Source: Flectonema sp. DT1601
Lineage: Eukaryota
Direction of reading: 5' to 3'
DNA: 64,000 bases
Assembly (NCBI GenBank): GCA_964019425.1
Contig: OZ025785.1
Span: 496,001 to 560,000 of the forward strand
Positions 5,827 through 39,625 of the stretch are shown here, in pieces. Numbering within the stretch: the stretch's first letter is position 1; each line of letters begins with the position of its first letter. Below the pieces are notes generated by a model. It was given only the letters and a program-made list of their open reading frames with translations, did not search any database and was not told where the DNA came from. The position numbers were made by a program, and so were the translations under genes.

Positions 5827-6336
5827 TGGGAATTTTGGTAGTTAAATATATTCTAAAAAATGAGATCACTACCTTCAGCCAGTTGGTAAGTAATTAGCTC
5901 CCGTCACTGTACTCACTTGGGAAAGTAATTATTCGAATTGGAAACACCGTATTCGGAACTCCTGCCGATACATTGATGACTTCCTTAACTGGAGTTGCAG
6001 CCCTCCTTTGGAAGAATCTGATACATTGTACTCGAAGTGGGACGCACAACATTCAAATTACTCAACTGCAGCAATATCAGGACAGTTTGTCTCCCTTCAT
6101 TAACTCTCACATTAATAATTGGTAGCATTGCAGCAATGCGTCGGCGTATCTAGATGGTGTCTCTTGCGTACAATAGTATCGAAGTCGGAGTTTTAATTCA
6201 TCACACGCTGATTTTCTTCAGGTGGTTTCCAGACAAGTGGGAAGTTGACTCACAGCAGTTTCCTTCATTCTTGAATTGAAGTTACGTATCCTTTGATTTA
6301 ATTCTTCATCACCAGAAACTCATCCAGTTTAAAATA

Positions 6337-8712: not shown

Positions 8713-9160
8713 TTCTAAAATATGAGATGACCACCTTCAGCCAGTTGGTAAGTAATTAGGTCCCGTCACTGTACTCACTTGGGAAAGTAATTATTCGAAT
8801 TGAAAACACCGTATTCGGAACTCCTGCCGATACATTGATGACTTCCTTAACTGGTTCTGTTGCATACAGCATAAGAAATGCTAGTTGCCCTGAAAAGTCT
8901 GGGGAGCACCCCCAACCGTTTTTGATTTTGTAATAACCGCCCCGTTCTGAAGCTATTTGTGTAGTAAACGCTAGTTTGCCGTATTGGGTTTATTGACCGA
9001 TTGTTATGCAACTGTACGCAGAAAGGTATTTTCCGTGTGTTTGCTTTTTGGTCATTGGTTGTCTTTTCGTACGTCTCGTTAAGTGTTTCAGCTATTTGTG
9101 TTTCGGAACTGTTTTGATGAAAATAATTGATTCTCTCATTTATTCTTTTCAGGTTTCCAA

Positions 9161-10717
9161 ATGGAGGAATCACAAAACCACATATGCACCGGTAGCAACG
9201 CCCAAGATAAATATTGGAAACAAGTATTCCATCCTCTTTTTAAAAGTGAGGGGGATTCTTCAATAATTTCCGAAAGTAAAAAACTGATATCTGAATTCTA
9301 TCCGGAAGTGAAGAGGGGTCCAGTGGGTGAAACTCTTCTTCACAGATTGATATTAGGTCATCCTGATAAGGGGAAAGAGAATAAGTTGAGAAAGGTATTG
9401 GATTTACTACTCAAACTAGATGACCCAGTGTTATTAAAGGAAATAGTATGTCACGCCTACAACAGGAGAGATCCGAAAGTTGCGCAAGTAAAATCAGGAA
9501 CAGAGAGATCAACCAAATCACTTCGATATAAAGAATTAGTTTTTGATGGAGAAACAGGATTACACCTTGCTATTGCTTTTGGTGACATGGAATTGGTTGA
9601 AAAACTACTGTCGCTGGGGGCAGACTTGTGCTCTAGAGCATACGGTTCTACCTTTGCTCCTGGAGTATCCAGAACGTACTTTGGTGAATATCCCTTGTCC
9701 TTGGCAGCTGCGATGGGTTCTATGGAAGTCGCTGAAATAATGCTGCGTCACTACTCTAAACAAACACCTGCTGTTTTAGACAATGAACAAGATATTGTTT
9801 CAATGAATGACGAGGCGAAAGCTTTGGAAAAAACTAAGGATGCTTTATACAGAAAGATGGACACTTTTGATAATAACGCGTTTCATATCGCAATCATAAA
9901 CCATCGAATTGATTTTTATATCTTTCTCTTGAAAGAAGCAGTTAGAGACGGATTAACTGCCGTTCAAGTTAGTGAGTTTTATGGGGCTTATGGACTCACT
10001 CCGCTGACTTTAGCTGTTTTGTGGTATCCTGATGGCAGTGGATTTCAAAAAGTACTTGACACTTTTAAGGGAAAAGTTCTTTGGGTGTTTTCAGGAATAG
10101 AAGCAAGACTATATCCCCTTCAACAGATTGATAGTGTTCCATCTGAGGGAAGTGAGTTTATCTCTGTGATATATCTGGTGACTCGATATAATATTTTGGG
10201 GTTAGCAGAAAACCATTTACTTCAATCAATTTTAAAGGAGAAGTGGAACGATCATTTGGCGATACCCGCATACGTTGCTATGATTATTCATGTCTGGTTT
10301 CTTGGAGTAATAACTGCGTACACTGTTATGCTACACCCTCATGGAAGACTCGATGATGAACGAGCTAAGTCTCTGCAACAGATGTCGTTGGGAGTGAGTA
10401 TTTTTTATTTCGTTGGAATCTTTTATGATATCGTAGTTTGTTTGAATTATCGATCTGATTTACAATCTGTTAAGAATGTTCCTGGCGATGATACCATGAG
10501 AAGGGAACTTGACCTTCCACAAGATATCCTATCTGCATACAAATCACTAAAACACAAAGCAGCATATCCAAATTACCCCATTGAGATGCCAACTATGATG
10601 TGCTATTTTGGTGTACCGTTGACATGCTGGGATGTCATTGGTTGTCTTGGTACTATTTTTATGTTTTTGCATGTAGCTACGCGATCAGAGATTACTCGAC
10701 AACACGATTGTTATTAG
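9161..10717 (+). pseudogene. 3'-truncated duplicate of the TRPV-like channel gene; lacks the pore-forming region
   Basis: Essentially identical to 26472-28000 up to position 10689, then switches into UBL-gene sequence and stops at 10717. Confidence 0.9.
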
Positions 10718-14760: not shown

Positions 14761-15455
14761 TTTTTTTCTCTTTTTTTTTTTTCTTCCCCCTACAAACTTA
14801 ATAAGGCGGAATCATTTCGAAGCTATAACAAAACAATCCTAATAAGAATGGGAGTCTAATTACGTTGATGTTGTCCTCGTAGCTCTGGAGAGTTAACCCG
14901 ATGCTCTTTAGTTTACTGGCGATGCACAGTACGCAATGTATTGGACTTCCTTATCTATCTATCTAATCATTTAGGTTACACGATTTGATTGTGTTATGTC
15001 TTATAATACCGATACTAACACTGATTGATGAAAGAAAATAAAACAAAAAAAAAAATGATTCCTCTGATATCTATTTATTGTATGGTTAGCTTATGTTGAT
15101 TTACTGAGCTGGTTGGGTCTTCCTTACTAAGTTGATGTTTCGTGATGGACGATTTACTTCTAAGTTAAGATATAGACAACTCGAAAACCTGATCATTAGT
15201 TATTTTATTTTATTTTTTCTGATAACTGTTGTGCCTCTTTGGCACTTCATTGTGCGCTCCGTGTGTGTGCGTTAACCATTATCATGTTTATGGTGTGCCT
15301 TTGGTATTCATTATTGTTGTTGAGTTGTAGAAGATAGTCACATTGCGTTGTGTGTGATTTGATCTTATTGAGTTGGTTGTTTTTTTTCTTTTTAAAAATC
15401 TATTCTATGGGGGTCAGTTTTTCTTAACAAAAAAAAGAAAAAAAAAAAAAAAAAT

Positions 15456-16448
15456 ATGAAAAAACGATTTCGAAAACCTTCAAAACTCAACACCGAGCCA
15501 TCTCTCATAACAAGACCAGTCATGTGGCCTGAGAAATCTATATCAGGAGGAGTCACATACGGACCCGTTCCTTTTGTTCAACCGTATACTGGATACCCAG
15601 CCATACCTATTGATAAAGGCATTAAAATAGTTTCATGGAACGTTAATGGTATTGACAGAATGATGAGATTAAATGCAAGTTTGATTGAGCAAATATCGAT
15701 TAGAGAACATCCTCAAGTTATTTGCATTCAAAAAACTAAATTAGAAGAAAACAACGATCTCTTAGATGAGATGATGTCTCGTAAATATGTTCCACATTAT
15801 AATTGCTCAAAAATAAGGAAAAAATACGGAGGTGTAGTCACGTTTTTATCAAAGAATATTGAAGTAGAAGAAATAATTCACGGCATACCTGGGGCACCTG
15901 AATTCTCCAATGAGGGAAGGTTGACTACTGTTATTTTACCTAAAATGATGATTTTAAATGTGTTATTTCCTTCTTCTGGTAAGAACCTAAATAGGCATAG
16001 TGATAGAATAAATATTTGGGATGTCGCTTTCAAAAATTATGCATCAAAACTACTTGAAATCTGTCGAGAACAAGACAAACATTTAGTTATAGCGGGTGAC
16101 TTCGCGGTGGCAGCAGAGTTGCGAGACATGTCTCCAATTCGTCAAAAACCAAACTCATCCGGTTGTACAATTGAAGAAAGAAATAATTTCACTTCCCTAC
16201 TAAACATCGGACTTAGTGATACATTTCGGAAATACGTTTACGAAACAGACTGGTACACATACTGGCCCTCAACAGATGCCTCAAGGGAAAGAAATATGGG
16301 AATGCGTCATGACTACATACTTGCTTCTCCTTCTTGTTATGACTTGTGTATACACAGTTGTGTACTGAATGCTTATCACGGATCAAATCATTGCCCTGTT
16401 GTCGCTTCGTTCTCATGGAAGCTTCCAAAGGTCTTATCATCATGTTAG
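15456..16448 (+). CDS. ExoIII/APE1-family AP endonuclease-like protein with several catalytic substitutions
   Basis: Motifs IVSWNVNG, CIQKTK, YGGV, EGR, GDFAVA, DTFR, YTYW, RHDYIL, GSNHCPV in ExoIII order. Confidence 0.9.
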   Translation: MKKRFRKPSKLNTEPSLITRPVMWPEKSISGGVTYGPVPFVQPYTGYPAIPIDKGIKIVSWNVNGIDRMMRLNASLIEQISIREHPQVICIQKTKLEENNDLLDEMMSRKYVPHYNCSKIRKKYGGVVTFLSKNIEVEEIIHGIPGAPEFSNEGRLTTVILPKMMILNVLFPSSGKNLNRHSDRINIWDVAFKNYASKLLEICREQDKHLVIAGDFAVAAELRDMSPIRQKPNSSGCTIEERNNFTSLLNIGLSDTFRKYVYETDWYTYWPSTDASRERNMGMRHDYILASPSCYDLCIHSCVLNAYHGSNHCPVVASFSWKLPKVLSSC

Positions 16449-16761: not shown

Positions 16762-16815
16762 TATGTATCCTTTTAATTAATTCTTCATCACTAGAAACTC
16801 ATCCAGTTAAAAATA

Positions 16816-18783
16816 ATGGCAACTGTCGATTCCCTGTCCTCTGTTTTGAGGAGCCATCAGAGGTTCATGGCGAAGCTGCTGGTGGAAGTGGTGAGTCGGA
16901 AGGAGGAGTCGGGGGCGCTGATGGACAGCTTTTCAGAAGTTCTCAGATCGTCGGAGGAGATCATGGTTGGAATGACGGATGCTGAGGCTGCGACTGAATT
17001 GACGACGTACAAGGAAGTACACCGGGTGGCGAGGGAGAAGGAGTCGGCGAAGTTGGTGGAAGGAAGCTCGCGATTACTGGGAACCCTTTCCTTGCATCCT
17101 GACATGAAGTGTGCCGATATCGGGTTTGTTAAAGCTGATCTCAAGGGGGACGGGAAGTTGGAGTTGGTCGAAGATGACCTGAGGAATGTATTCTCGTCCA
17201 CCTGCTTCCCTCGGCTGCTGAACGAGGATGAGTATTTCAACACACTTCAAATTGGTTACTTGGGCATGGGTGAAACAGAAGAGGGTGTCCCAGCCCAACT
17301 CAGGAAGGAACTCTTCCTGCTGCTGGACTGGCCGAGACTCTCCCACTCGTCGAAGGAAGAAGTCAGATCCCAATTTGACAACACCTCATGGGGTGCTGAG
17401 ATCCTCCGTGAGCTGGAAGATTCGAACAACTGGGGTACTGTGAAAAGAACATACAAATGGCCTGAACGTGTTGTGACTGCAGAAAAGTTGAGAACTTCAC
17501 ATCTTCGTACTCGAATTGACATTTTATTCTCACAAAATCCCGACATGTTGTGTGTCCTCGATGCCTCAGAATATATCGACGATGAAGGCACCCTTTCCAG
17601 TGATTGTGTTGAGATGCTTCCGTCTTGCATCCGTCGGTTGTCATTCACCAACTGCGGCCGTTGCACTGCATTTGAAAAGCATTTCCTGTCAGGCAGTTGT
17701 GACTCGCTGACGTCAATCGATTTCACTTCTTTTCACAATGTGACGGCCATCCCCAGCAAGTGCTTGAGCAACTTGAAGTCTCTGACTCACATTAATTTGT
17801 GTTCCTTGAGTGAAGTTACGATCGTTGGCAATGACTTTATGAGTAACTGTGAGTCCCTCACCTCCATCGATGTTTCTGGTTTGAAGAAGCTGACTGAAAT
17901 AGGAAATGGATTCTTGCGTAATTCAAATTCCCTGACTAGCGTGGATTTGTCTTCCTTCAGTGAAGTTACGAGCATTGGCTATTACTTTATTTGTCACTGT
18001 GAGTCCCTCACCTCCATCGATGTTTCCGGTTTTCAGAAGCTGACTACAATAGGAAATGGTTTCTTGCTTAATTCAAAGTCTCTGACTAGCGTAGACTTGT
18101 CTTCCTTGAGTGAAGTTACGAGCATTGGCTATTACTTTATTAGTAACTGTAAGTCCCTCACCTCCATCGATGTTTCCGGTTTTCAGAAGCTGACTACAAT
18201 AGGAAATGGTTTCTTGCATAATTCAAAGTCTCTGACTAGCGTAGACTTGTCTTCCTTGAGTGAAGTTACGAGCATTGGCTATTACTTTATTAGTAACTGT
18301 AAGTCCCTCACCTCCATCGATGTTTCCGGTTTTCAGAAGCTGACTACAATAGGAAATGGTTTCTTGCATAATTCAAAGTCTCTGACTAGCGTAGACTTGT
18401 CTTCCTTGAGTGAAGTTACGAGCATTGGCGATAACTTTGTTAAAAACTGTGAGTCCCTCACCTCCATCGATGTTTCCGGTTTTCAGAAGCTGACTAAAAT
18501 AAGAAATGGATTCTTAAGTTATTCGAAGTCTCTGACTAGCGTGGATTTGTCTTCCTTTAGTGAAGTTTCGAGTATTGACTGTAACTTTTTTAGTAACTGT
18601 GAATCCCTCACCTCCATCGATGTTTCTGGTTTGAAGAAACTGCCGGCAATTAAATATAGATCTACGCCAATAATAAAAAAAGGTTTCCTGAAGGAAACAA
18701 AACTGACTAAGAAAAATGTCAAGGGATTGGAGGAGTGCTGCAAAGACGTTAAATGGGAATTTCGGAAGTTAAATATATTCTAA
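16816..18783 (+). CDS. BspA-type LRR protein, paralog 2 (655 aa)
   Basis: Same N-terminus as 6337 with a different repeat array. Confidence 0.9.
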   Translation: MATVDSLSSVLRSHQRFMAKLLVEVVSRKEESGALMDSFSEVLRSSEEIMVGMTDAEAATELTTYKEVHRVAREKESAKLVEGSSRLLGTLSLHPDMKCADIGFVKADLKGDGKLELVEDDLRNVFSSTCFPRLLNEDEYFNTLQIGYLGMGETEEGVPAQLRKELFLLLDWPRLSHSSKEEVRSQFDNTSWGAEILRELEDSNNWGTVKRTYKWPERVVTAEKLRTSHLRTRIDILFSQNPDMLCVLDASEYIDDEGTLSSDCVEMLPSCIRRLSFTNCGRCTAFEKHFLSGSCDSLTSIDFTSFHNVTAIPSKCLSNLKSLTHINLCSLSEVTIVGNDFMSNCESLTSIDVSGLKKLTEIGNGFLRNSNSLTSVDLSSFSEVTSIGYYFICHCESLTSIDVSGFQKLTTIGNGFLLNSKSLTSVDLSSLSEVTSIGYYFISNCKSLTSIDVSGFQKLTTIGNGFLHNSKSLTSVDLSSLSEVTSIGYYFISNCKSLTSIDVSGFQKLTTIGNGFLHNSKSLTSVDLSSLSEVTSIGDNFVKNCESLTSIDVSGFQKLTKIRNGFLSYSKSLTSVDLSSFSEVSSIDCNFFSNCESLTSIDVSGLKKLPAIKYRSTPIIKKGFLKETKLTKKNVKGLEECCKDVKWEFRKLNIF

Positions 18784-21164
18784 AATATGAGATGACCACC
18801 TTCAGCCAGTTGGTAAGTAATTAGCTCCCGTCACTGTACTCACTTGGGAAAGTAATTATTCGAATTGAAAACACCGTATTCGGAACTCCTGCTGATACAT
18901 TGATGACTTCTGTTGCATACAGCATAAGAAAAGCTAGTTACCCTGGAGCACCCCCAACCATTTTTGATTTTGTAATAACCGCCCCGTTCTGAAGCTATTT
19001 GTGTAGTAAACGCTAGTTTGCCGTATTGGGTTTTATTGACCGATTGTTATGCAACTGAACGCAGAAAGGTATTTTCCGTGTGTTTGCTTTTTGGTCATTG
19101 GTTGTCTTTTCGTACGTCTCGTTAAATATTTCAGCTATTTGTGTTTCGGAACTGTTTTGATGAAAATAATTTGATTCTCTCATTTATTCTTTTCAGGTTT
19201 CCAAATGGAGGAATCACAAAACCACATATTATTGGATTTACCTCTCAAATTAGATGACCAGTGTTATTAAAGGAAATAGTATGTCACGCCTACAGTCAGG
19301 GACTCACAGTGAATTATAAAAGAAATTGTCAATCATAATCGTAACTTCACTAAAGGAAGTCAAATCAACATGAGTCAGAGACTACAAGTTGTTCAAGAAC
19401 TTGACGGAGGGAAGTCCGTCACATTGTGAAAAGTTACCATTGAAACAATATCTTGTTGATCGTCTAAAACAGCAGGTGTTTGTTTAGAGTAGTGACGCAG
19501 CATTATTTCAGCGACTTCCATAGAACCCATCGCAGCTGCCAAGGACAAGGGATATTCACCAAAGTACGTTCTGGATACTCCAGGAGCAAAGGTAGAACCG
19601 TATGCTCTAGAGCACAAGTCTGCCCCCAGCGACAGTAGTTTTTGGAGGAAGAGAAGTGGGAGCAAAGTCTGATAAAGGGAAAAACTTGATATCGCGAGAT
19701 ATTCACATGCTGGATAATTGGTAGAAGAACAGCCGATTAGCAAAGTAGGATATGGTACCCGTCGGAGATATCGTTCGCTACCCGCCGACGGCGACTTCTA
19801 AATTATTTCTCTCGGTGCAGTGTTGGTGGCAAATTACCTAAATTAAACATCGGATCCCTCCTGTCTCTATCGATGTTTCCAGAAAAATTACTGTCGCTGG
19901 GGGCAGTATTGACAATTTCTTTTTATAATTCACTGTGAGTCCCTGACCTCTATCGATGTTTCCAGACTTGAGAAGGTGACTACAATAGGAAGAGGTTTCG
20001 TTGGGTATTGAAAACTGACCATAAGAGATGTCAAGCTTAACTTTAGGAACTTGATATTTTGGAAGTTAGGTTTATTTTAAAGTAAACGTGAATATGAGAA
20101 TACTCTTGAAATCGAACCCAACAATCAAAATTCCATTCAGGTAATTTGCCACCGATAAAACTTATGTCTGCGGTATCGAATCCTTAAAAGTCTATCGCAT
20201 TGCTATTGTATTGCAGATCGATAATATAACCACCGTTTTCTTATTTTACTAAAGTTAATTTGAGTTTTATTTTATTATACTGATGGATATTTGTACTCCT
20301 TTATCAGTTCTCACTCTCCTGTACTCATGTACAACTCAATCGAACCCTGTCTGAAAGTGGATAAGAATATTTGTGAAATCATATTTTTAACGTGACAATC
20401 ATTATAAATTCTTAACACTTGTGTTCTACTTTTTTGAGTTTCCTTTTCGTGTTTCACATTCAGATCGCGAGATCTCTGAGTGGAACTCTCAGAAGAGCTA
20501 CCGTCAGGACAATTCTTGCCATCGTGATTTGGACCCCCACGTGTGATAATCCTTGGTCTCCCTGCACCCACACGGTATATCGTTTTTAGCATCTCAGGCC
20601 TTTCTGTCTATTTTTTCACTGCTTTTCACAATGTGACGGCCATCCCCATCAAATTCATGAACAACTTGAAGTCTCTGACTCACATTAATTTGTGTTCCTT
20701 GAGTGAAGTTACGATCGTTGGCAATGACTTTATGAGTAACTGTGAGTCCCTCACCTCCATCGATGTTTCTGGTTTTCAGAAACTGACTACAATAGGAGAT
20801 AGGTTCTTGTATAATTTAAAGTCTCTGACTAGCGTGGACTTGTCTTCCTTGAGTGAAGTAACGAGCATTAGCGATGACTTTATTAGTGACTGTGAGTCCC
20901 TCACCTCCATCGATGTTTCTGGTTTGAAGAAGCTGACTGCAATAGGAAATGGATTCTTAAGTTATGCTCGCTGAAATAATGCTGCGTCACTACTCTAAAC
21001 AAACAACTGCTGTTTTAGACGATCAACAAGATATCATTTCGATAGTTACTTTTCACAATGTGACGGCCATCCCCAACAAGTTCTTGAACAACTTGTGGTC
21101 TCTGACTCACGTTAATTGACTTCCTTTGTGAAGTTACGATTATGATGACAATTTCTTTTATAAT

Positions 21165-21184
21165 TGACTGTGAGTCCCTGACCT
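21165..21184 (+). repeat. 20-bp target-site duplication tgactgtgagtccctgacct (further copies 21246-21265 and 21963-21982)
   Basis: Three exact copies. An uninterrupted empty site with matching flanks lies at 19930-19949 (1 mismatch). Confidence 0.92.
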
Positions 21185-21245
21185 GTGCCTCGTCATCTCA
21201 CCGTGCTAGCAAGCCTGAATGACAGCACTCAAAATGGTACATATA
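21185..21245 (+). mobile_element. 61-bp insertion between target copies, possibly a 5'-truncated retroelement 3' end
   Basis: Absent from the empty site. Can fold gtgc/gcac, gtcat/atgac, tca/tga. Confidence 0.6.
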
Positions 21246-21265
21246 TGACTGTGAGTCCCTGACCT

Positions 21266-21338
21266 GGGTAACGAAACTCGGATAGCGCGCCTCCTCGTGG
21301 TGTTACCTGGATGCACCTTGTGTGTAACTAGAGTGCTG
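21266..21338 (+). ncRNA. HDV-like self-cleaving ribozyme
   Basis: P1 GGGUAAC (21266-72)/GUUACCU (21302-08) with G1-U wobble; P2 UAGCGC (21283-88)/GUGCUG (21333-38); P3 GCC/GGU with L3 UCCUCGU; GG (21309-10) for P1.1; P4 UGCAC/GUGUA; J4/2 ACUAGA with catalytic-position C21328. Confidence 0.85.
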
Positions 21339-21962
21339 ACGTATTGTTGTTGTTGCTGTGTATTCTTTTACCCCCGTTTTATTTTCCGGTAGCCTAACCT
21401 TTAAAAAAAAAGGACAACATAGCAGAAGGTCAGGTGATCCGGCCCGGGATACTCAGGCACCCGGAGCTCACAGGGGCCACCGGGTTTTTATTTTTTCCTT
21501 AGTGGCATGATTTCCCTTTACCCCCATTTCCTTCAAACTTCCCCCGTTTAGTCTTTTCACGCATGGGGGGATTATAAGTTCAGGTCGCCTGAAATGTATT
21601 AACAGTATCAGCCCCGCGAGTTACTCGGGGAGCTCCCATGCAATGTGTGGAGAAAGAGGCCATCCCTCCCCCTACCTCTCTGCTTTACTACGTCGTTTTT
21701 TGTGTGTGGCATTTCTTTTCTTATATTCTTTTCTTTTCAATCTTGTTCCTTCACACGCGGTTGTTCGAGCGGTTGTGAACCACCTTGGGTCTCTTACGGT
21801 CTCCAAGCTACTGTTGTGCGAAGAAACAAATCTGTTGGTGCGGTGGCCTTCCGACGCCACCTGGACCGCAACTCGTTCACAGTGCCCTACCCGGTTCTCC
21901 ACCGGACCGCCTGAGCGACGGGATCCATGGGATTCAAACCCCTAAACACTGGTTAATTTTTT
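21266..21962 (+). mobile_element. 697-bp non-autonomous non-LTR-type retroelement (SINE/SIDE-like) with 5' HDV-like ribozyme
   Basis: Flanked by the exact 20-bp duplication and absent from the empty site. No credible ORF. Starts at ribozyme G1 and ends in an oligo-T run. Confidence 0.8.
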
Positions 21963-22993
21963 TGACTGTGAGTCCCTGACCTCTATCGATGTTTCCAGAC
22001 TTGAGAAGGTGACTACAATAGGAAGAGGTTTCGTTGGGTATTGAAAACTGACCATAAGAGATGTCAAGGTTAACTTTAGGAACTTGATATTTAGGAATTA
22101 AACGTAATTAGCTTCCATCACTTTATTGCAAGTGAGATAGAAAATGATGATAACGTACTGAAGAGAACTTTTAAATTGTTATGGAAAACACTACCTTTTT
22201 GTTGTGAGCATGTAATCGAGTTGACAAAACAATGAATTGAATCCTCTACTGGTGCGGGTCAACTACTAAACTTACTGATGAAGACCTAAGAAGGACAAGT
22301 AGTATAAGATTAAGGCTCCTGAAACTACGTATTCCACAAGTGATTTATGGATTAGCAGATCTATTGTGTTTTTTTTTAATAACGTTTTCTTCTTTTTATA
22401 TTTTTTTGATTTGGTACAACTATTTCATAATAAACTAATATTCTAATTGAGAAATACTTCTTTATATGCTGATGGAAATAACTTAAGTTTTCTGCAAACC
22501 TCCAAAAATAATATGAGAATACTCTTGAAATCGAACCCAACAATCAAAATTCCATTCAGGTAATTTGCCACCGATAAAACTTATGTCTGCGGGTATCGAA
22601 TCCTTAAAAGTCTATCGCATTGCTATTGTATTGCAGATCGATAATATAACCACCGTTTTCTTGTTTTACTTGAGTTAATTTGAGTTTTATTTTATTATAC
22701 TGATGGATATTTGTACTCCTTTATCAGTTCTCACTCTCCTGTACTCATGTACAACTCAATCGAACCCTGTCTGAAAGTGGATAAGAATATTTGTGAAATC
22801 ATATTTTTAACGTGACAATCATTATAAATTCTTAACACTTGTGTTCTACTTTTTTGAGTTTCCTTTTCGTGTTTCACATTCAGATCGCGAGATCTCTGAG
22901 TGGAACTCTCAGAAGAGCTACCGTCAGGACAATTCTTGCCATCGTGATTTGGACCCCCACGTGTCCAAGTCCAACATGCTCGTTTTTCTTTCG

Positions 22994-23293
22994 GTAATGA
23001 CTCACTTTATTGTTGCTCTATTCTCATTCCAATCTAACAGCCATTGTTTTGAGACATTCTTAAAGACAGTAATGACTCACTTTATTGTTGCTCTATTCTC
23101 ATTCCAATCTAACAGCCATTGTTTTGAGACATTCTTAAAGACAGTAATGACTCACTTTATTGTTGCTCTATTCTCATTCCAATCTAACAGCCATTGTTTT
23201 GAGACATTCTTAAAGACAGTAATGACTCACTTTATTGTTGCTCTATTCTCATTCCAATCTAACAGCCATTGTTTTGAGACATTCTTAAAGACA
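22994..23293 (+). repeat. 75-bp tandem repeat, 4 copies
   Basis: Same unit as 5412-5561. Confidence 0.95.
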
Positions 23294-23556: not shown

Positions 23557-24066
23557 TGGGAATTTTGGTAGTTAAATATATTCTAAAAAATGAGATCACT
23601 ACCTCCTGCCATTAGTAAGTAATTAGGTCCCGTCACTGTACTCACTTGGGAAAGTAATTATTCGAATTGAAAACACCGTATTCGGAACTCCTGCCGATAC
23701 ATTGATGACTTCCTTAACTGGAGTTGCAACCCTCCTTTGGAAGAATCTGATACATAGTACTCGAAGTGGGACGCACAACATTCAAATTACTCAACTGCAG
23801 CAATATCAGGACAGTTTGTCTCCCCTTCATTAACTCTCACATTAATAATTGGTAGCATTGCAGCAATGCGTCGGCGTATCTAGATGGTGTCTCTTGCGTA
23901 CAATAGTATCGAAGTCGGAGTTTTAATTCATCACACGCTGATATTCTTCAGGTGGTTTCCAGACAAGTGGGAACTTGACTCACAGCAGTTTCCTTCATTC
24001 TTGAATTGAAGTTACGTATCCTTTGACTTAATTCTTCATCACCAGAAACTCATCCAGTTAAAAATA

Positions 24067-26037
24067 ATGGCAACTATCGATTCCCTGTCCTCTGTTTTGC
24101 GGAGCCATCAGAGGTTCATGGCGAAGCTGCTGGTGGAAGTGGTGAGTCGGAAGGAGGAGTCGGGGGCGCTGATGGACAGCTTTTCAGAAGTTCTCAGATC
24201 GTCGGAGGAGATCATGGTTGGAATGACGGATGCTGAGGCTGCGACTGAATTGACGACGTACAAGGAAGTACACCGGGTGGCGAGGGAGAAGGAGTCGGCG
24301 AAGTTGGTGGAAGGAAGCTCGCGATTACTGGGAACCCTTTCCTTGCATCCTGACATGAAGTGTGCCGATATCGGGTTTGTTAAAGCTGATCTCAAGGGGG
24401 AGGGGAAGTTGGAGTTGGTCGAAGATGACCTGAGGAATGTATTCTCGTCCACCTGCTTCCCTCGGATGCTGAACGAGGATGAGTATTTCAACACACTTCA
24501 AATTGGTTACTTGGGCATGGGTGAAACAGAGGAGGGTGTCCCAGCCCAACTCAGGAAGGAACTCTTCCTGCTGCTGGACTGGCCGAGACTCTCCCACTCG
24601 TCGAAGGAAGAAGTCAGATCCCAATTTGACAACACCTCATGGGGTGCTGAGATCCTCCGTGAGCTGGAAGATTCGAACAACTGGGGTACTGTGAAAAGAA
24701 CATACAAATGGTCTGAACGTGTTGTGACTGCGGAGGAGTTGAGAACTTCACATCTTCGTACTCGAATTGACATTTTGTTCGCACAAAATCCCGACATGTT
24801 GTGTGTCTTCGATGCCTCAGAATATATCGACGATGAAGGCACCCTTTCTAGTGATTGTGTTGAGATACTTCCGTCTTGCATCCGTCGGTTGTCATTCACC
24901 AACTGCGGCCGTTGCATTAAACTTCAGCAGCATTTCCCGTGGGACAGTTGTGACTCGCTGACGTCAATCGATTTCACTGCTTTGTACAATGTGACGGCCA
25001 TCCCCAACAAGTTCTTGAACAACTTGAAGTCTCTGACTCACGTTAATCTATCTTCCATGAATGAAGTGACGAGTGTTGGCGATGACTTTATGAGTAACTG
25101 TGAGTCCCTCACCTCCATCGATATTTCCGGTTTAAAGAAACTGCCCAGAATAGGAGATGGATTCTTGCATGATTCGAAGTCTCTGACTAGTGTAGATTTG
25201 TGTTCTTTAAGTGAAGTTAAGATCATTGGCTATTACTTTATTAGTAACTGTGAGTCCCTCACCTCCATCGATGTTTCTGGTTTCAAGAAACTGAATAGAA
25301 CAGGACATACGTTCTTGCATAATTCAAAGTCTCTGACTAGCGTGGATTTGTCTTCCTTTAGTAGAGTTATGAGTATTGGCGAATACTTCCTTAGTAACTG
25401 TGAGTCCCTCACCTCCATCGATGTTTCTGGTTTCAAGAAACTGAATAGAACAGGACATACGTTCTTGCATAATTCAAAGTCTCTGACTAGCGTGGATTTG
25501 TCTTCCTTTAGTAGAGTTATGAGTATTGGCGAATACTTCCTTAGTAACTGTGAGTCCCTCACCTCCATCGATGTTTCTGGTTTCAAGAAACTGAATAGAA
25601 CAGGACATACGTTCTTGCATAATTCAAAGTCTCTGACTAGCGTGGATTTGTCTTCCTTTAGTAGAGTTATGAGTATTGGCGAATACTTCCTTAGTAACTG
25701 TGAGTCCCTCACCTCCATCGATGTTTCTGGTTTCAAGAAACTGAATAGAACAGGACATACGTTCTTGCATAATTCAAAGTCTCTGACTAGCGTGGATTTG
25801 TCTTCCTTTAGTAGAGTTATGAGTATTGGCGAATACTTCCTTAGTAACTGTGAGTCCCTCACCTCAATCGATGTTTCTGGTTTGCAGCATCTGAGTACAA
25901 TCAGATTTAGATCTGCAAAACGTGGCTTCCAAGGTGGTTTCCTGAAGGAAACAAAACTGACTAAGAAAGATGTCAGGGGATTGGAGAAGTGCAGTGATGT
26001 TGTTAAAGGGGTATTTTGGCAGTTAAATATATTCTAA
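24067..26037 (+). CDS. BspA-type LRR protein, paralog 3 (656 aa)
   Basis: Family N-terminus. Four identical 150-bp repeat units at about 25241-25840. Confidence 0.9.
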   Translation: MATIDSLSSVLRSHQRFMAKLLVEVVSRKEESGALMDSFSEVLRSSEEIMVGMTDAEAATELTTYKEVHRVAREKESAKLVEGSSRLLGTLSLHPDMKCADIGFVKADLKGEGKLELVEDDLRNVFSSTCFPRMLNEDEYFNTLQIGYLGMGETEEGVPAQLRKELFLLLDWPRLSHSSKEEVRSQFDNTSWGAEILRELEDSNNWGTVKRTYKWSERVVTAEELRTSHLRTRIDILFAQNPDMLCVFDASEYIDDEGTLSSDCVEILPSCIRRLSFTNCGRCIKLQQHFPWDSCDSLTSIDFTALYNVTAIPNKFLNNLKSLTHVNLSSMNEVTSVGDDFMSNCESLTSIDISGLKKLPRIGDGFLHDSKSLTSVDLCSLSEVKIIGYYFISNCESLTSIDVSGFKKLNRTGHTFLHNSKSLTSVDLSSFSRVMSIGEYFLSNCESLTSIDVSGFKKLNRTGHTFLHNSKSLTSVDLSSFSRVMSIGEYFLSNCESLTSIDVSGFKKLNRTGHTFLHNSKSLTSVDLSSFSRVMSIGEYFLSNCESLTSIDVSGFKKLNRTGHTFLHNSKSLTSVDLSSFSRVMSIGEYFLSNCESLTSIDVSGLQHLSTIRFRSAKRGFQGGFLKETKLTKKDVRGLEKCSDVVKGVFWQLNIF

Positions 26038-26471
26038 AATATGAGATGACCACCTTCAGCCAGTTGGTAAGTAATTAGGTCCCGTCACTGTACTCACTTG
26101 GGAAAGTAATTATTCGAATTGGAAACACCGTATTCGGAACTCCTGCCGATACATTGATGACTTGTGGTGCATACAACAGCATAAGAAAAGCTAATTACCC
26201 TGTAAAGTCTGGGGAGCACCCCCAACCATTTTTGATTTTGTAATAACCGCCCCGTTCTGAAGCTATTTGTGTAGTAAACGCTAGTTTGCCGTATTGGGTT
26301 TTATTGACCGATTGTTATGCAACTGAACGCAGAAAGGTATTTTCCGTGTGTTTGCTTTTTGGTCGTTGGTTGTCTTTTCGTACGTCTCGTTAAGTGTTTC
26401 AGCTATTTGTGTTTCGGAACTGTTTTGATGAAAATAATTGATTCTCTCATTTATTCTTTTCAGGTTTCCAA

Positions 26472-28628
26472 ATGGAGGAATCACAAAACCACATATGCAC
26501 CGGTAGCAACGCCCAAGATAAATATTGGAAACAAGTATTCCATCCTCTTTTTAAAAGTGAGGGGGATTCTTCAATAATTTCCGAAAGTAAAAAACTGATA
26601 TCTGAATTCTATCCGGAAGTGAAGAGGGGTCCAGTGGGTGAAACTCTTCTTCACAGATTGATATTAGGTCATCCTGATAAGGGGAAAGAGAATAAGTTAA
26701 GAAAGGTATTGGATTTACTACTCAAACTAGATGACCCAGTGTTATTAAAGGAAATAGTATGTCACGCCTACAACAGGAGAGATCCGAAAGTTGCGCAAGT
26801 AAAATCAGGAACAGAGAGATCAACCAAATCACTTCGATATAAAGAATTAGTTTTTGATGGAGAAACAGGATTACACCTTGCTATTGCTTTTGGTGACATG
26901 GAATTGGTTGAAAAACTACTGTCGCTGGGGGCAGACTTGTGCTCTAGAGCATACGGTTCTACCTTTGCTCCTGGAGTATCCAGAACGTACTTTGGTGAAT
27001 ATCCCTTGTCCTTGGCAGCTGCGATGGGTTCTATGGAAGTCGCTGAAATAATGCTGCGTCACTACTCTAAACAAACACCTGCTGTTTTAGACAATGAACA
27101 AGATATTGTTTCAATGAATGACGAGGCGAAAGCTTTGGAAAAAACTAAGGATGCTTTATACAGAAAGATGGACACTTTTGATAATAACGCGTTTCATATC
27201 GCAATCATAAACCATCGAATTGATTTTTATATCTTTCTCTTGAAAGAAGCAGTTAGAGACGGATTAACTGCCGTTCAAGTTAGTGAGTTTTATGGGGCTT
27301 ATGGACTCACTCCGCTGACTTTAGCTGTTTTGTGGTATCCTGATGGCAGTGGATTTCAAAAAGTACTTGACACTTTTAAGGGAAAAGTTCTTTGGGTGTT
27401 TTCAGGAATAGAAGCAAGACTATATCCCCTTCAACAGATTGATAGTGTTCCATCTGAGGGAAGTGAGTTTATCTCTGTGATATATCTGGTGACTCGATAT
27501 AATATTTTAGGGTTAGCAGAAAACCATTTACTTCAATCAATTTTAAAGGAGAAGTGGAACGATCATTTGGCGATACCCGCATACGTTGCTATGATTATTC
27601 ATGTCTGGTTTCTTGGAGTAATAACTGCGTACACTGTTATGCTACACCCTCATGGAAGACTCGATGATGAACGAGCTAAGTCTCTGCAACAGATGTCGTT
27701 GGGAGTGAGTATTTTTTATTTCGTTGGAATCTTTTATGATATCGTAGTTTGTTTGAATTATCGATCTGATTTACAATCTGTTAAGAATGTTCCTGGCGAT
27801 GATACCATGAGAAGGGAACTTGACCTTCCACAAGATATCCTATCTGCATACAAATCACTAAAACACAAAGCAGCATATCCAAATTACCCCATTGAGATGC
27901 CAACTATGATGTGCTATTTTGGTGTACCGTTGACATGCTGGGATGTCATTGGTTGTCTTGGTACTATTTTTATGTTTTTGCATGTAGCTACGCGATCAGA
28001 AACTGAATTTACTGCAGGTGTTCCTACGTCTTTGGTTCTATTGGGAATAGCTGATTTATGTATTTGGGTCTCGACCCTAGCATACATGACCATGTATGAG
28101 AGAACTGGTCTTCTAGTGTCGATGATTAGCCGGACTTTGGTTAGAGATTTCATGCCTTTTGTTTGTGTTTTTACAGCTATTATTTGCGGAGTATCTGTCG
28201 CTGTGTTTTCAATTCAAAGAAGTGGAATGACACTACCACAAGTAATAGATTTATTAAAGCGTCTGAGCATCGGAGTCTACCAACACGAGACGTTCGAACC
28301 ACAGGGTCATGGTGAAACACTTCGTGTTGTTAGTTATGTGTTTTTGTTGATATTTACATTGCTTTCTTTATTATTACTTTTAAATCTTCTTATCGCAACA
28401 CTATCGACAACATATCAACAGTACATTAATACCGTTCATCAGACCTGGAGTCTTGATAGAGCATCAAGAATACTGTTGTGGGAATGTCGTCTTCGATTCT
28501 TTAGAAGGATTGTATTGCAATCTAATAAAGGTGATTACCTTCACCTCGGTGAAACATCTGAAAGTGGTCCAGAGGGATCCTTTGGAAGGGTTGAGTCGAG
28601 AAAGAAGAAAAGATTTTCCACCTGGTGA
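26472..28628 (+). CDS. TRPV-like cation channel (ankyrin repeats + transmembrane domain)
   Basis: Ankyrin motifs GETLLH, GETGLHLAI, YFGEYPLSLAA, GLTPLTLA; multiple TM helices; S6 LLLNLLIATLSTTY; TRP-box-like WSLDRA. Confidence 0.9.
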   Translation: MEESQNHICTGSNAQDKYWKQVFHPLFKSEGDSSIISESKKLISEFYPEVKRGPVGETLLHRLILGHPDKGKENKLRKVLDLLLKLDDPVLLKEIVCHAYNRRDPKVAQVKSGTERSTKSLRYKELVFDGETGLHLAIAFGDMELVEKLLSLGADLCSRAYGSTFAPGVSRTYFGEYPLSLAAAMGSMEVAEIMLRHYSKQTPAVLDNEQDIVSMNDEAKALEKTKDALYRKMDTFDNNAFHIAIINHRIDFYIFLLKEAVRDGLTAVQVSEFYGAYGLTPLTLAVLWYPDGSGFQKVLDTFKGKVLWVFSGIEARLYPLQQIDSVPSEGSEFISVIYLVTRYNILGLAENHLLQSILKEKWNDHLAIPAYVAMIIHVWFLGVITAYTVMLHPHGRLDDERAKSLQQMSLGVSIFYFVGIFYDIVVCLNYRSDLQSVKNVPGDDTMRRELDLPQDILSAYKSLKHKAAYPNYPIEMPTMMCYFGVPLTCWDVIGCLGTIFMFLHVATRSETEFTAGVPTSLVLLGIADLCIWVSTLAYMTMYERTGLLVSMISRTLVRDFMPFVCVFTAIICGVSVAVFSIQRSGMTLPQVIDLLKRLSIGVYQHETFEPQGHGETLRVVSYVFLLIFTLLSLLLLLNLLIATLSTTYQQYINTVHQTWSLDRASRILLWECRLRFFRRIVLQSNKGDYLHLGETSESGPEGSFGRVESRKKKRFSTW

Positions 28629-34423: not shown

Positions 34424-35342
34424 GGTTAGCCATCCATCTCCCTTCCTCCATTATATTTCCCCTCCAGCCTCCTTTTTGTTAATTGGCTTTCTTCGATTTT
34501 TTCTTGTTTGTAGTTTTTCTAACTTAGAAATTATATCGCTTTTTTTTTTTTTTTTTTTTTTTTGCTTCTTCTGTTTCAATGTTTGCTTAAAAGAAGTCAC
34601 CGTGAAGGGACCTTGTCTTAGATTTTTGTTTCCCTTTCTTTTTTTTACGCTGTAATTTCTTTTTTGGTTCCTAGCCCTTTGTAGCCTTGCAATGACTGTG
34701 TCAAGATTTGAATATAATGCTGTTATGTTCTCTGTATTTTACCCGAAAATTACCGTTTTTTTTAATTTTTTTTTTAAAAACTAGATAGTTTCCTTACCTG
34801 TATCAGTGTTATGATGTTGTTGTTTATATTGATTTCGGTAAAATTGTTGTTTCTTTCAAGTACCTTAATTCTTGACAGGAGGAGGATCGTTGCTTCCATT
34901 CGTCTGTTTTCATCTGCCAAAAGAATTTATTTTTCTACCGTCGTTGGCGTTAAGCCAAATAGATACGTGTGATGATTACGTTTAGATGTGATACTTTTAT
35001 TAGGGATCTTTATTTACATCTTAGTAATGACTTATCTATTATTCATCCTCTAGTGAGTTGTGTAATTGTTTGTTTACTTCAACAGCCAAGGACAGTATGA
35101 GTTGGGACACAAAGAAAGAAATATTAGAATCGAGTTGAGCATTCAATTCGAGTGCTGCAGCTGCCTGGTGTCTCTTGCGTACAATCGAAGTCGGAGTTTT
35201 AATTCATCACACGCTGATATTCTTCAGGTGGTTTCCAGACAAGTGGGAAGTTGACTCACAGCAGTTTCCTTCGTTCTTGAATTGAAGTTACGTATCCTTT
35301 GAATTAATTCTTCATCACCAGAAACTCATCCAGTTAAAAATA

Positions 35343-37526
35343 ATGACAACTATCGATTCCCTGTCCTCTGTTTTGAGGAGCCATCAGAGGTTCATGGCGA
35401 AGCTGCTGGTGGAAGTGGTGAGTCGGAAGGAGGAGTCGGGGGCGCTGATGGACAGCTTTTCAGAAGTTCTCAGATCGTCGGAGGAGATCATGAATGGAAT
35501 GACGGATGCTGAGGCTGCTACTGAATTGACGACGTACAAGGAAGTACACCGGGTGGCGAGGGAGAAGGAGTCGGCGAAGTTGGTGGAAGGAAGCTCGCGA
35601 TTACTGGGAACCCTTTCCTTGCATCCTGACATGAAGTGTGCCGATATCGGGTTTGTTAAAGCTGATCTCAAGGGGGACGGGAAGTTGGAGTTGGTCGAAG
35701 ATGACCTGAGGAATGTATTCTCGTCCACCTGCTTCCCTCGGCTGCTGAACGAGGATGAGTATTTCAACACACTTCAAATTGGTTACTTGGGCATGGGTGA
35801 AACAGAAGAGGGTGTCCCAGCCCAACTCAGGAAGGAACTCTTTCTGCTGCTGGACTGGCCGAGACTCTCCCACTCGTCGAAGGAAGAAGTCAGATCCCAA
35901 TTTGACAACACCTCATGGGGTGCTGAGATCCTCCGTGAGCTGGAAGATTCGAACAACTGGGGTACTATGAAAAGAACATACAAGTGGCCTCGGTCTGAAC
36001 GTGTTGTGACTGCGGAGGAGTTGAGAACTTCACATCTTCGTACTCGAATTGACATTTTGTTCGCACAAAATCCCGACATGTTGTGTGTCCTCGATGCCTC
36101 AGAATATATCGACTATGAAGGCACCTTTTCTAATGATTGTGTTAAGAAGCTTCCGTCTTGCATCCGTCGGTTGTCATTCACCAACTGCAGCCGTTGCACT
36201 GCTTTTGAGCAAGAGTTCCGGTCAGATAGTTGTGACTCGCTGACGTCAATAGATTTCACATCTTTTCACAACGTGACGGCCATCCCCAGCAAGTTCTTGA
36301 ACAACTTGAAGTCTCTGACTCACGTGGATTTATCATCCTTTAGTGAAGTTACGAATATTGGCGATGACTTTATTAGAAACTGTAAGTCCCTCGCCTCCAT
36401 CGATGTTTACGGTTTGTGGAAACTGACTACAATAGGAGATGGATTCTTGTATAATTCAAAGTCTCTGACTAGCGTGGATTTATCATCCTTTAGTGAAGTA
36501 ACGATCATTGGCGATAACTTTATTAGTAACTGTAAGTCCCTCGCCTCCATCGATGTTTCCGGTTTGTGGAAACTGACTACAATAGGAGATGGATTCTTGA
36601 ATAATTCAAAGTCTCTGACTAGCGTGGACTTGTCTTCCTTGAATGAAGTTACGAGCATTGGCTATTACTTTATTAGTAACTGTAAGTCCCTCACCTCCAT
36701 CGATTTTTACGGTTTGTGGAAACTGACTACAATAGGAATTGGATTTTTGTATAATTCAAAGTCTCTGACTCACGTGGATTTGTCTTCCTTGAATGAAGTT
36801 ACGATCATTGGCGAATACTTCCTTAGTAACTGTAAGTCCCTCGCCTCCATCGATGTTTCCGGTTTGTGGAAACTGACTACAATAGGAGATGGATTCTTGT
36901 ATAATTCAAAGTCTCTGACTAGCGTGGATTTGTCTTCCTTGAATGAAGTTACGATCATTGGCGATAACTTTATTAGTAACTGTAAGTCCCTCGCCTCCAT
37001 CGATTTTTACGGTTTGTGGGAACTGACTACAATAGGAATTGGATTTTTGTATAATTCAAAGTCTCTGACTCACGTGGATTTGTCTTCCTTGAGTGAAGTT
37101 ACGAGTGTTGGCTATGACTTTATTTGTAACTGTGAGTCCCTCACCTACATCGATGTTTCCAGTTTGAAGAAGATGATTAGAAAAAACAAACAAACAACGA
37201 ACAATAACAACCCACAGACTCCAAATGCTGGCATCCTATTCTTCCTTTTTAAAGTGTGTGACAACAACAAAGACTACATGTCTGCTTTGAGTGTTATTAC
37301 GAGGTATCCACAGGCTTGTACTGAGAAGTTGCAGTTGTTCTTTTTTCAAATATTAAATAAATCGAAAGCGACTACTGCAGAGAAGCAAAAATGTGATTCT
37401 CAACTGCAGACGAGTTTTGGAAAAAGTTTGGCGGATTTGGCGTCGATTGTCAACAGGTTCGTGAGAGAAACAGCTGATGCGGCTCCAGAAGTCGTCAGCG
37501 AACCCATCGATACGTCACATTGTTAG
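35343..37526 (+). CDS. BspA-type LRR protein, paralog 4, with an unrelated captured C-terminal tail (727 aa)
   Basis: Family sequence to about 37172, then non-family sequence in frame. Confidence 0.85.
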   Translation: MTTIDSLSSVLRSHQRFMAKLLVEVVSRKEESGALMDSFSEVLRSSEEIMNGMTDAEAATELTTYKEVHRVAREKESAKLVEGSSRLLGTLSLHPDMKCADIGFVKADLKGDGKLELVEDDLRNVFSSTCFPRLLNEDEYFNTLQIGYLGMGETEEGVPAQLRKELFLLLDWPRLSHSSKEEVRSQFDNTSWGAEILRELEDSNNWGTMKRTYKWPRSERVVTAEELRTSHLRTRIDILFAQNPDMLCVLDASEYIDYEGTFSNDCVKKLPSCIRRLSFTNCSRCTAFEQEFRSDSCDSLTSIDFTSFHNVTAIPSKFLNNLKSLTHVDLSSFSEVTNIGDDFIRNCKSLASIDVYGLWKLTTIGDGFLYNSKSLTSVDLSSFSEVTIIGDNFISNCKSLASIDVSGLWKLTTIGDGFLNNSKSLTSVDLSSLNEVTSIGYYFISNCKSLTSIDFYGLWKLTTIGIGFLYNSKSLTHVDLSSLNEVTIIGEYFLSNCKSLASIDVSGLWKLTTIGDGFLYNSKSLTSVDLSSLNEVTIIGDNFISNCKSLASIDFYGLWELTTIGIGFLYNSKSLTHVDLSSLSEVTSVGYDFICNCESLTYIDVSSLKKMIRKNKQTTNNNNPQTPNAGILFFLFKVCDNNKDYMSALSVITRYPQACTEKLQLFFFQILNKSKATTAEKQKCDSQLQTSFGKSLADLASIVNRFVRETADAAPEVVSEPIDTSHC

Positions 37527-38281
37527 TAGCTGATTGCACACCAGGATGAATGGAATGTCGAAAATTCTAAAAGCCGAGCGGAGTGCAGCTTCGGTGGTGC
37601 TGGTGATGCAGTCTAGACGAGGATCAACTACAACTAAGGAGTTCCCTTCTCCAATCGTTGTAACAGCCAGTGTGACCCTCAAAATTCCATTCAGGTAATT
37701 TGCCTCCGAAACTGAGCACCGATAAAACTTACGTCTGCGGGTATCGAATACTTAAGAGTCGATATTGTAGATCGATAATATAACAACCATATCTTATTTT
37801 ACGTAAATTAATTTGAATCTTCTTATGCTGAAGATATTTCTACTCCTTTATCAGTTCTCACTCCCGTGTACTCATCCTCACACCAAGAAAGCTTAATCCC
37901 ACTCTGTGTCCTGTCGAATCGAAACGGTCCCGGTCCAACCCCTGCGCAGAAGTAATCTGCACCACAGTGTTGATGCTTCTAAGTTAGTGATGTTTACTTC
38001 AACAGCCAAGGATAGTACAGCTGCCTTCATATTAGTTGAGACACAAAGAAAGAAATATTAGAATCGAGTTGAGCATTCAATTCGAGTGCTGCAGCTGCCT
38101 GGTGTCTCTTGCGTACAATGGTATCGAAGTCGGAGTTTTAATTCATCACACGCTGATATTCTTCAGGTGGTTTCCAGACAAGTTGGAAGTTGACTCACAG
38201 CAGTTTCCTTCATTCTTGAATTGAAGTTACGTATCCTTTGAATTAATTCTTCATCACCAGAAACTCATCCAGTTTAAAATA

Positions 38282-39625
38282 ATGACAACTGTCGATTCCC
38301 TGTCCTCTGTTTTGCGGAGCCATCAGAGGTTCATGGCGAAGCTGCTGGTGGAAGTGGTGAGTCGGAAGGAGGAGTCGGGGGCGCTGATGGACAGCTTTTC
38401 CGAAGTTCTCAGATCGTCGGAGGAGATCATGGTTGGAATGACGGATGCTGAGGCTGCTACTGAATTGACGACGTACAAGGAAGTACACCGGGTGGCGAGG
38501 GAGAAGGAGTCGGCGAAGTTGGTGGAAGGAAGCTCGCGATTACTGGGAGCCCTTTCCTTGCATCCTGACATGAAGTGTGCCGATATCGGGTTTGTTAAAG
38601 CTGATCTCAAGGGGGACGGGAAGTTGGAGTTGGTCGAAGATGACCTGAGGAATGTATTCTCGTCCACCTGCTTCCCTCGGCTGCTGAACGAGGATGAGTA
38701 TTTCAGCACACTTCAAATTGGTTACTTGGGCATGGGTGAAACAGAGGAGGGTGTCCCAGCCCAACTCAGGAAGGAACTCTTCCTGCTGCTGGACTGGCCG
38801 AGACTCTCCCACTCGTCGAAGGAAGAAGTCAGATCCCAATTTGACAACACTTCATGGGGTGCTGAGATCCTCCGTGAGCTGGAAGATTCGAACAACTGGG
38901 GTACTGTGAAAAGAACATACAAATGGTCTGAACGTGTTGTGACTGCGGATGAGTTGAGAACTTCACATCTTCGTACTGGAATTGACATTTTGTTCACACA
39001 AAATCCCGACAAGTTGTGTGTCCTCGATGCCTCAGAATATATCGACTATGAAGGCACCCTTTCTAGTGATTGTATTGAGATGCTTCCGTCTTGCATCCGT
39101 CGGTTGTCATTCACCAACTGCGGCCGTTGTATTAAATTCCAGCAGAATTTCCTGTCAGACAATTGTGACTCGCTGACGTCAATAGATTTCACATCTTTTC
39201 ACAACGTGACGGCCATCCCCAGCTACTTCTTGAACAACTTGAAGTCTCTGACTCACATTAATTTGTCTTCCTTTCGCAAAGTGACGATCATTGGAGATGA
39301 CTTTATTAGTAATTGTGGGTCCCTCACCTCCATCGATGTTTCCGTTTTTCGGAAACTGACTACAATAGGAGATGGATTCTTGCATAATTCGAAGTCTCTG
39401 ACTAGCGTGGATTTATCTTCTTTTGGTGAAGTAACGAGCATTGGCAATCACTTTATTAGTTTCTCTGCGTCCCTCACCTCCATCGATGTTTCCGGTTTGA
39501 AGAAACTGACTACAATTGGAAGAAATTTCTTACCGCATACGAAACTGACTAAGAATGATGTCAGGGGATTGGATGAGTGCAGTGATATCGTTAAAAATTC
39601 TTTTCGAAATTTAAATATATTTTGA
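38282..39625 (+). CDS. BspA-type LRR protein, paralog 5 (447 aa, shortest array)
   Basis: Family N-terminus and C-cap with few repeats. Confidence 0.9.
   Translation: MTTVDSLSSVLRSHQRFMAKLLVEVVSRKEESGALMDSFSEVLRSSEEIMVGMTDAEAATELTTYKEVHRVAREKESAKLVEGSSRLLGALSLHPDMKCADIGFVKADLKGDGKLELVEDDLRNVFSSTCFPRLLNEDEYFSTLQIGYLGMGETEEGVPAQLRKELFLLLDWPRLSHSSKEEVRSQFDNTSWGAEILRELEDSNNWGTVKRTYKWSERVVTADELRTSHLRTGIDILFTQNPDKLCVLDASEYIDYEGTLSSDCIEMLPSCIRRLSFTNCGRCIKFQQNFLSDNCDSLTSIDFTSFHNVTAIPSYFLNNLKSLTHINLSSFRKVTIIGDDFISNCGSLTSIDVSVFRKLTTIGDGFLHNSKSLTSVDLSSFGEVTSIGNHFISFSASLTSIDVSGLKKLTTIGRNFLPHTKLTKNDVRGLDECSDIVKNSFRNLNIF

Follow-up and report, generated by a model that had tools for sequence, protein, structure and literature searches.

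There is good reason to believe that a 697-bp insert in the 64-kb window (the whole stretch of DNA that was analysed) is a multicopy, non-coding element at a fixed codon position of LRR genes, and that it is likely a non-autonomous non-LTR retroelement, released by a predicted ribozyme and reinserted in trans into LRR units. Since its copies, wherever a junction could be read or deduced, share one LRR codon position although the DNA around them differs, a borrowed retrotransposon enzyme that recognises a protein-repeat motif is likely to be at work. The sequence-only reading of this DNA had proposed that retrotransposition machinery with sequence specificity acts in trans on a family of protein-coding repeats, and independent loci interrupted at the same LRR phase now support that proposal. 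The host is likely a diplonemid, to judge from the relatives of an AMPK-beta protein (best named relative from Diplonema papillatum at 59-61%; a EukProt protein at 74%), and an LRR protein of the window has close paralogues on other long ENA contigs. Exact matching of five host proteins, taken as stop-to-stop frames, returned no record.

The insert is part of a compound structure at 21165-21982, which runs target, 61-bp insert, target, 697-bp insert, target. Re-measurement confirmed the coordinates, the two insert lengths and the three exact 20-mers that had been read from the sequence. The parts of this structure, the host fragment that precedes it and an empty paralogous site are as follows.

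21165-21184, plus strand: target copy 1, LRR codons D-C-E-S-L-T and the first base of a Ser codon
21185-21245, plus strand: 61-bp insert, single copy in the window
21246-21265, plus strand: target copy 2, exact 20-mer
21266-21962, plus strand: 697-bp non-coding element, probably a retroelement, sense to the LRR frame and multicopy outside the window
21963-21982, plus strand: target copy 3, after which the native LRR continuation S-I-D-V-S comes next
20968-21164, plus strand: host fragment upstream of the insertions, a piece of an ankyrin gene (20968-21043) fused to a frameshifted LRR piece
19930-19949, plus strand: empty paralogous target with the full target pattern, including the TCT Ser codon

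The empty site, already noted in the sequence-only reading, is a true paralogue. It differs by one base from the occupied 20-mer, its surroundings are 97.8% identical over 136 bp to 21962-22097, and the window minus both inserts and two target copies aligns to it without a break; it also lies within rearranged DNA. When up to three mismatches are allowed, the 20-mer has 30 matches in the 64-kb window and none in 100 shuffles, and codons of the NCESLTS type do recur, as had been stated, in the 150-bp units of five intact LRR_5/LRR genes. The idea that an LRR motif had been entered holds for the codons, but the occupied site is a frameshifted ankyrin/LRR chimeric fragment and belongs to none of the five intact genes. 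It is extremely improbable that faulty assembly or a fortuitous tandem duplication produced the triple repeat. Four public runs (X1-X4) aligned to 20900-22300 gave no coverage of the window's own flanks and no read support for the triple structure, so that none of the public runs examined spans its junctions; however, independent runs and contigs show the same two element ends elsewhere in LRR sequence, and the empty paralogue can be rebuilt without a seam.

Run X1 holds some 655 nt of the element with two substitutions and two gaps, parts of it are also found in X2, X3 and X4, and next to no element words occur in runs X5 and X6. The small shares in X2-X4 are not taken as an indication of habitat. 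A spurious minus-strand ORF inside the element is present exactly on four ENA contigs and as a variant on one. In X1, a duplication of up to 20 bp (extendable to exactly 20) is common to the loose end that precedes 21265 and the one that follows 21961, the two junctions lying on separate contigs at a depth of about 2. Translated by hand, with the slash marking the junction, these loose ends read G-F-L-S-Y-C-P-Q-L-T/S-L-D-L, and the 3' flank in X4, an RNA library from a different study, reads S-C-P-Q-I-T-S-L-D-L; the window junction is D-C-E-S-L-T/S-I-D-V. All three boundary loose ends among those listed (X1, X4) fall in LRR codons at one phase, x-C-x-x-(L, I or V)-T/S, the other listed loose ends being the 36-nt motif described below or short pieces treated as chance. 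On an LRR profile built from 206 units, the 10-mers of X1 and X4 score higher than every one of 102,584 non-LRR controls. The targets in the window and in X1 have 12 of 20 bases in common and differ at eight, and the X1 and X4 flanks differ at 4 of 30. An element that is nearly unchanged (two substitutions, two gaps) while its targets differ to this extent points to separate insertion events.

Further junctions come from predicted proteins, as one frame is open through the 3' end of the element and gene callers therefore sometimes translate the junction. A search with that 3'-junction frame gave three matches among 33 candidates, located on ENA contigs of 20, 493 and 421 kb, and all three of these junction-spanning proteins (designated P0131 to P0133) are at the LRR phase. 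In P0133 the element is in frame with S-C-P-Q-I-T-S-L-D-L and an LRR_5 domain follows; this may be the locus that is seen in X4. The P0132 and P0131 tails give LRR when the frame is shifted by one base, again at the same phase, with 0 and 37 of 6000 controls as good. P0132 joins the element at 21860 and has LRR on both sides, so that its protein frames suggest a 5'-truncated copy. The LRR upstream of this junction is off-frame, one unit lying 25 residues ahead of that at the junction; taken by itself, the left junction is modest, with 108 of 6000 controls equally good. Both reading frames of P0132 are satisfied by one 20-nt duplication and by none of 21-24 nt, but a further LRR unit in this gene would also suit the tail (2 of 79 windows in all; 0 of the 62 window units), which makes the phase firmer than the exact duplication. 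Because a protein search favours open frames, P0132 and P0133 are biased toward coding flanks and P0131 is not, and the sample is small, at five to six distinct sites. None of the 128 collected proteins ends in the 5'-junction peptide of the element, and P0097, which had been flagged for this peptide, is an unrelated protein. Copies at unrelated sequences with variable duplications, which the sequence-only reading had named as the observation that would speak against site specificity, were not encountered; a 20-bp duplication fits the two copies for which both junctions are available. Two features at the 3' end of the element bear on how these copies arose.

21860-21962, plus strand: 3' part of the element, retained in the putative 5'-truncated copy P0132
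21957-21962, plus strand: T tail, 6 T in the window copy

The first of these likely holds the reverse-transcription signal. The tail has three T in X1 and three in X4 and, given a 20-bp duplication, would have about four in P0133, eight in P0131 and eight in P0132. The new duplication in X1, the 5' truncation in P0132 and the variable T tails are all marks that fit target-primed reverse transcription. A single old insertion that duplication or gene conversion carried to other LRR paralogues, without ongoing site-specific retrotransposition, would be in keeping with the window, where LRR and ankyrin genes are heavily rearranged and segmentally duplicated. Yet the element is some 99% identical while its flanks come from different LRR families (the eight of 20 target bases given above), the X1 copy is bounded at either end by a fresh duplication of its own target, and a 5'-truncated copy and variable tails exist. 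Such a history is already largely refuted and must be rated very improbable.

As the flanks differ and are all LRR codons cut at one phase, the target is best described as a degenerate codon pattern. The site specificity claimed earlier thus stands for the LRR codon phase, which is the same at other copies, but not for the 20-mer itself, of which only 12 of 20 bases recur in X1. Sites that were read directly agree in the bases CTGT-N7-T-N-ACYT/CT-N-T-N-GA, that is, Cys, hydrophobic, Thr, Ser and Asp codons. The Ser codon is TCT at all directly read occupied sites, as against none of the 62 units of the five intact genes. The full pattern is found at three places in the window, namely the doubly occupied site, 19930 and a copy that is split by the inversion at 19295-19864.

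The LRR units could on another view be off-target look-alikes of a real target in a multicopy RNA gene or other repeat, such as U2 snRNA (as for Utopia), rRNA or SL RNA. The 3' flank of Utopia starts TCTGTTC, the CTGT of which is also found in the invariant core, close to the first-strand cut, and duplications of 20 bp occur in the Utopia families of reptiles (PMC4640811); moreover, rRNA, SL and snRNA arrays collapse in assemblies and are invisible to protein searches. Against this, non-LRR junctions number 0 of 3 among the DNA boundary loose ends and 0 of 3 among the protein junctions, the U2 flank as printed does not match the invariant T-N-ACYT/CT half beyond CTGT, and no RNA family in Rfam matches the target region. 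Resemblances of the target to 18S and 28S sites were given no weight. A hidden RNA-gene target is accordingly considered unlikely, and the degenerate LRR pattern is taken as the target in what follows.

Ingi elements make duplications of about 12 bp, and the usual tail is A. The 20-bp duplication and the T tail found here are difficult to reconcile with an ingi/L1Tc-like element that has a loose consensus and inserts widely, and for which LRR genes would be a hot spot in the manner of the trypanosome RHS genes. Euglenozoan ingi/L1Tc, NARTc and SIDER elements typically have an HDV-like head (PMC4035085), RHS genes carry one or more retroelements at their hot spot (PMC7563717), and four to five further contigs with the element ORF lie outside the junction counts. 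INGI tails are described in turn as poly(A) (PMC12278014), as opposed to T, and all six junctions observed outside the window have LRR at a single phase, so that a loosely targeting element of this kind seems quite improbable beside one that reads the LRR codon pattern.

The supply of targets is best appreciated from the LRR genes of the window and the inversion close to the empty site.

6280-8712, plus strand: intact LRR gene, unoccupied
16795-18783, plus strand: intact LRR gene, unoccupied
24010-26037, plus strand: intact LRR gene, unoccupied
35286-37526, plus strand: intact LRR gene, unoccupied
38225-39625, plus strand: intact LRR gene, unoccupied
19295-19864, minus strand: 570-bp inversion, with one breakpoint inside a further target copy, between -3 and -2 relative to the insertion point

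None of the 62 units in these five BspA-type genes is occupied, which could be explained by selection against disrupted genes. The inversion is clean and joins ankyrin-gene and LRR sequence; it shows short offset inverted microhomology, for which reason a nuclease cut at this place is a possibility and not a finding. The long genes of the window lie on the plus strand without evident introns. There are duplicated ankyrin-repeat genes at 9131-10717 (a truncated copy) and 26442-28628, each coming after an LRR gene, with predicted membrane segments and a TRP-channel-like appearance by eye. Elsewhere in the window, an exact 75-bp tandem repeat in four copies at 22994-23293 (and at 5412-5558) forms part of a duplicated intergenic block, a stand-alone Exo_endo_phos (AP-endonuclease-like) gene with no adjoining RT is found at 15396-16448, and 57281-60379 is an ionotropic-glutamate-receptor-like gene (ANF_receptor and Lig_chan), here in a protist.

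At its 5' end the element is predicted to carry an HDV-like ribozyme, and its interior contains a second short motif.

21266-21345, plus strand: predicted HDV-like ribozyme (P1 21266-72/21302-08, P3 21289-91/21299-301, L3 21292-98, P4 21311-25)
21766-21801, plus strand: 36-nt motif, common to many short marine metatranscriptome contigs

An HDV-like fold at the first base of the 697-bp insert had been suggested from the letters alone. A descriptor built for this analysis from P1, P2, P3, L3, P1.1 and the J4/2 C bears out that prediction, with one match in the window that starts at 21266, exactly the first base of the insert, and two matches in 3.84 million shuffled nt, or some 5e-7 per position. 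The Rfam family HDV-F-prausnitzii matches 21266-21346 below threshold (15.5 bits vs 44, E 1.2). There are two candidate catalytic cytosines, 21328 (with P2' at 21333-38) or 21336 (in the Rfam register). A change in P4 of the X2 copy retains pairing, and the X1 copy is missing 11 nt of the predicted ribozyme at 21322, with which one candidate catalytic C is gone. Minimum-energy folding, a model that leaves pseudoknots aside, gave no significant z-scores. Long inverted poly(T)/poly(A) tracts at 52660-52834 are a source of spurious Rfam matches in the window.

The element has short ORFs only, with no Pfam family in its longest frame, and among 1.84 billion protein representatives there were no true relatives beyond translations of its own copies, the search returning P0131 and two ambiguous matches. 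A protein on a 245-kb ENA contig (P0134) has a six-fold 42-residue tandem repeat that resembles the translation of 21593-21665 (41% identity, E 6e-12) and, on this likeness, may represent a satellite related to the element. Thirteen pieces of the 36-nt motif, at 83-94% or with small gaps, are among the matches listed in X2 and X4. Contigs with this motif are short and deep, come from two marine metatranscriptomes and match the element with limits at exactly 21766-21801; by appearance, their loose ends on one side are complementary to those on the other, and in one of them the central hairpin is longer. The motif is possibly an undescribed structured RNA. It has no match in Rfam, and twister, hairpin ribozyme and intron domains were set aside as poor fits by eye, again with no Rfam match. 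Pattern searches for it gave either no matches or 2 and 119 loci with dissimilar middles, all 121 of which were discarded as chance.

The 61-bp insert has no second copy in the window, the four public runs or a genome-contig pattern search. It had been proposed that two unrelated inserts share one duplication; the 697-bp insert is indeed multicopy, but for the 61-bp insert, given the outcome of these searches, independent mobility can only be deduced. It is likely the product of an earlier insertion into the same cut site, either short or 5'-truncated, and our preferred guess is that it represents the 5'-truncated end of an autonomous partner. It has no Rfam match and folds no better than shuffles (z -0.99). 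A likeness to the 5' part of U6 snRNA was considered, found no support in Rfam and was rejected.

The following mechanism can be proposed. A sense insertion in an LRR gene of a one-strand array would be co-transcribed without a promoter of its own, and cleavage by the predicted ribozyme before G21266 would then give an exact 5' end. The partner endonuclease would nick the bottom strand immediately ahead of the x-Cys codons and, 20 bp farther downstream, the top strand behind base one of the Ser codon; it would chiefly read CTGT-N7-T-N-ACYT/CT, positions that are conserved by the LRR protein motif. Judging from the duplication, the truncation and the tail, the RNA would be copied by target-primed reverse transcription from its U-rich 3' end, whose terminal U could pair with the A at the primer end. 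The right-hand duplicate would retain the whole downstream target and be open to repeat insertion. This would lead to tandem stacking, in which the 61-bp insert likely preceded the 697-bp insert.

The partner itself is rather probably of the RLE type (CRE/SLACS or R2 group), while an APE-type enzyme could quite conceivably serve. No autonomous RT/endonuclease element was found in the window or in the runs and the protein and contig searches, the 3'-end pattern of the element was absent from metagenome, genome and viral contigs, and the ribozyme core pattern was absent from viral contigs; a phage match was dismissed as chance (E 0.2). The Diplonema genome has about 2500 TE-derived gene models, for which rigorous TE identification is still due (PMC10161547), and the RT gene models in its supplement rows number 745 SLACS-like and 1178 LINE/R2-like (PMC10161547).

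We would put forward, as a tentative proposal, that a diplonemid retrotransposon endonuclease reads protein-conserved LRR codons, so that all LRR families form a renewable landing field, that its cuts break, invert and re-fuse LRR genes, and that a synonymous change in the Ser codon offers the host an escape. Pointers to such LRR gene turnover are the inversion, which breaks a target 2 bp away from the insertion point, and the P0133 junction, where element and LRR are in frame; as regards the escape, TCT is avoided in 62 of 62 intact units. If true, a selfish element would be an engine of LRR repertoire turnover, and the gain and loss of genes in the expanded LRR families of protists would have a driver that can be tested. 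A fixed-phase target in a protein repeat, among paralogues that are some 60% alike in bases, would be a different solution to the safe-site problem, in which protein conservation preserves the target, and would provide an example of a promoter-less element living in a polycistronic genome. The series of occupied and empty sites is also natural material on the tolerance of an endonuclease to degeneracy, which is relevant to the engineering of retrotransposon-based gene insertion.

The usual targets of elements of this kind are RNA genes and simple repeats, as opposed to LRR codons. A literature search over titles and the beginnings of abstracts, with most subscription journals and Repbase outside its scope, returned no LRR-targeting or diplonemid ribozyme-headed retroelement. 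From its sequence features, the element appears to behave like a SIDE mobilised by a site-specific non-LTR retrotransposon, and not like CRE, an ingi derivative or Utopia, from which target or tail would set it apart. The U2-targeting, RLE-type Utopia elements resemble it in the 20-bp duplication of the reptile families, CTGT near the first-strand cut and occasional tandem insertion, but their 3' flank is U2 snRNA from nucleotide 39 (PMC4640811). The flanks here are LRR codons, the second target half is mismatched, and CTGT alone is in common with the U2 flank. CRE, SLACS and CZAR are likewise euglenozoan site-specific non-LTR elements with duplications; SLACS-like RTs are expanded in Diplonema (PMC10161547). 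CRE targets the SL RNA gene and has a poly(A) end (PMC12278014), whereas all junctions here are LRR and the tail at 21957-21962 is T. No RT or RLE was seen with the element.

The short derivatives of ingi/L1Tc (RIME, NARTc, SIDER) are at odds with both the T tail and the 20-bp duplication. The RHS hot spot of ingi/RIME in Trypanosoma is similar in that a protein-coding multigene family of a euglenozoan is hit at one position, giving rise to pseudogenes (PMC7563717). Each RHS gene has one hot spot, used by elements of relative specificity (PMC7563717), whereas the target here recurs in every Cys-type LRR unit and in several LRR families, with a 20-bp duplication and no poly(A). Homing endonucleases offer a parallel in their long targets and their tolerance at poorly conserved host-gene bases (PMC13565253), but here an RNA copy would be inserted with a duplication, and there is no splicing and no gene-conversion homing.

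The closest likeness is to the R2/R1 SIDEs, which are described as having an HDV head and tandem inserts separated by the duplication (PMC3414825), and variability of the R2 ribozyme has been described (PMC3774820). The present element shares with them a short, non-coding sequence with no coding capacity for RT or endonuclease, an HDV-like fold at the exact 5' junction (sub-threshold in Rfam), a fixed target and duplication, tandem copies, probable mobilisation in trans and the marks of target-primed reverse transcription, of which the truncation and some tail lengths are deduced from protein frames. It differs from them in that their conserved 28S rRNA site and 14-bp duplication are replaced by degenerate LRR codons, a 20-bp duplication and a T tail, and in that the ribozyme is here a predicted one.
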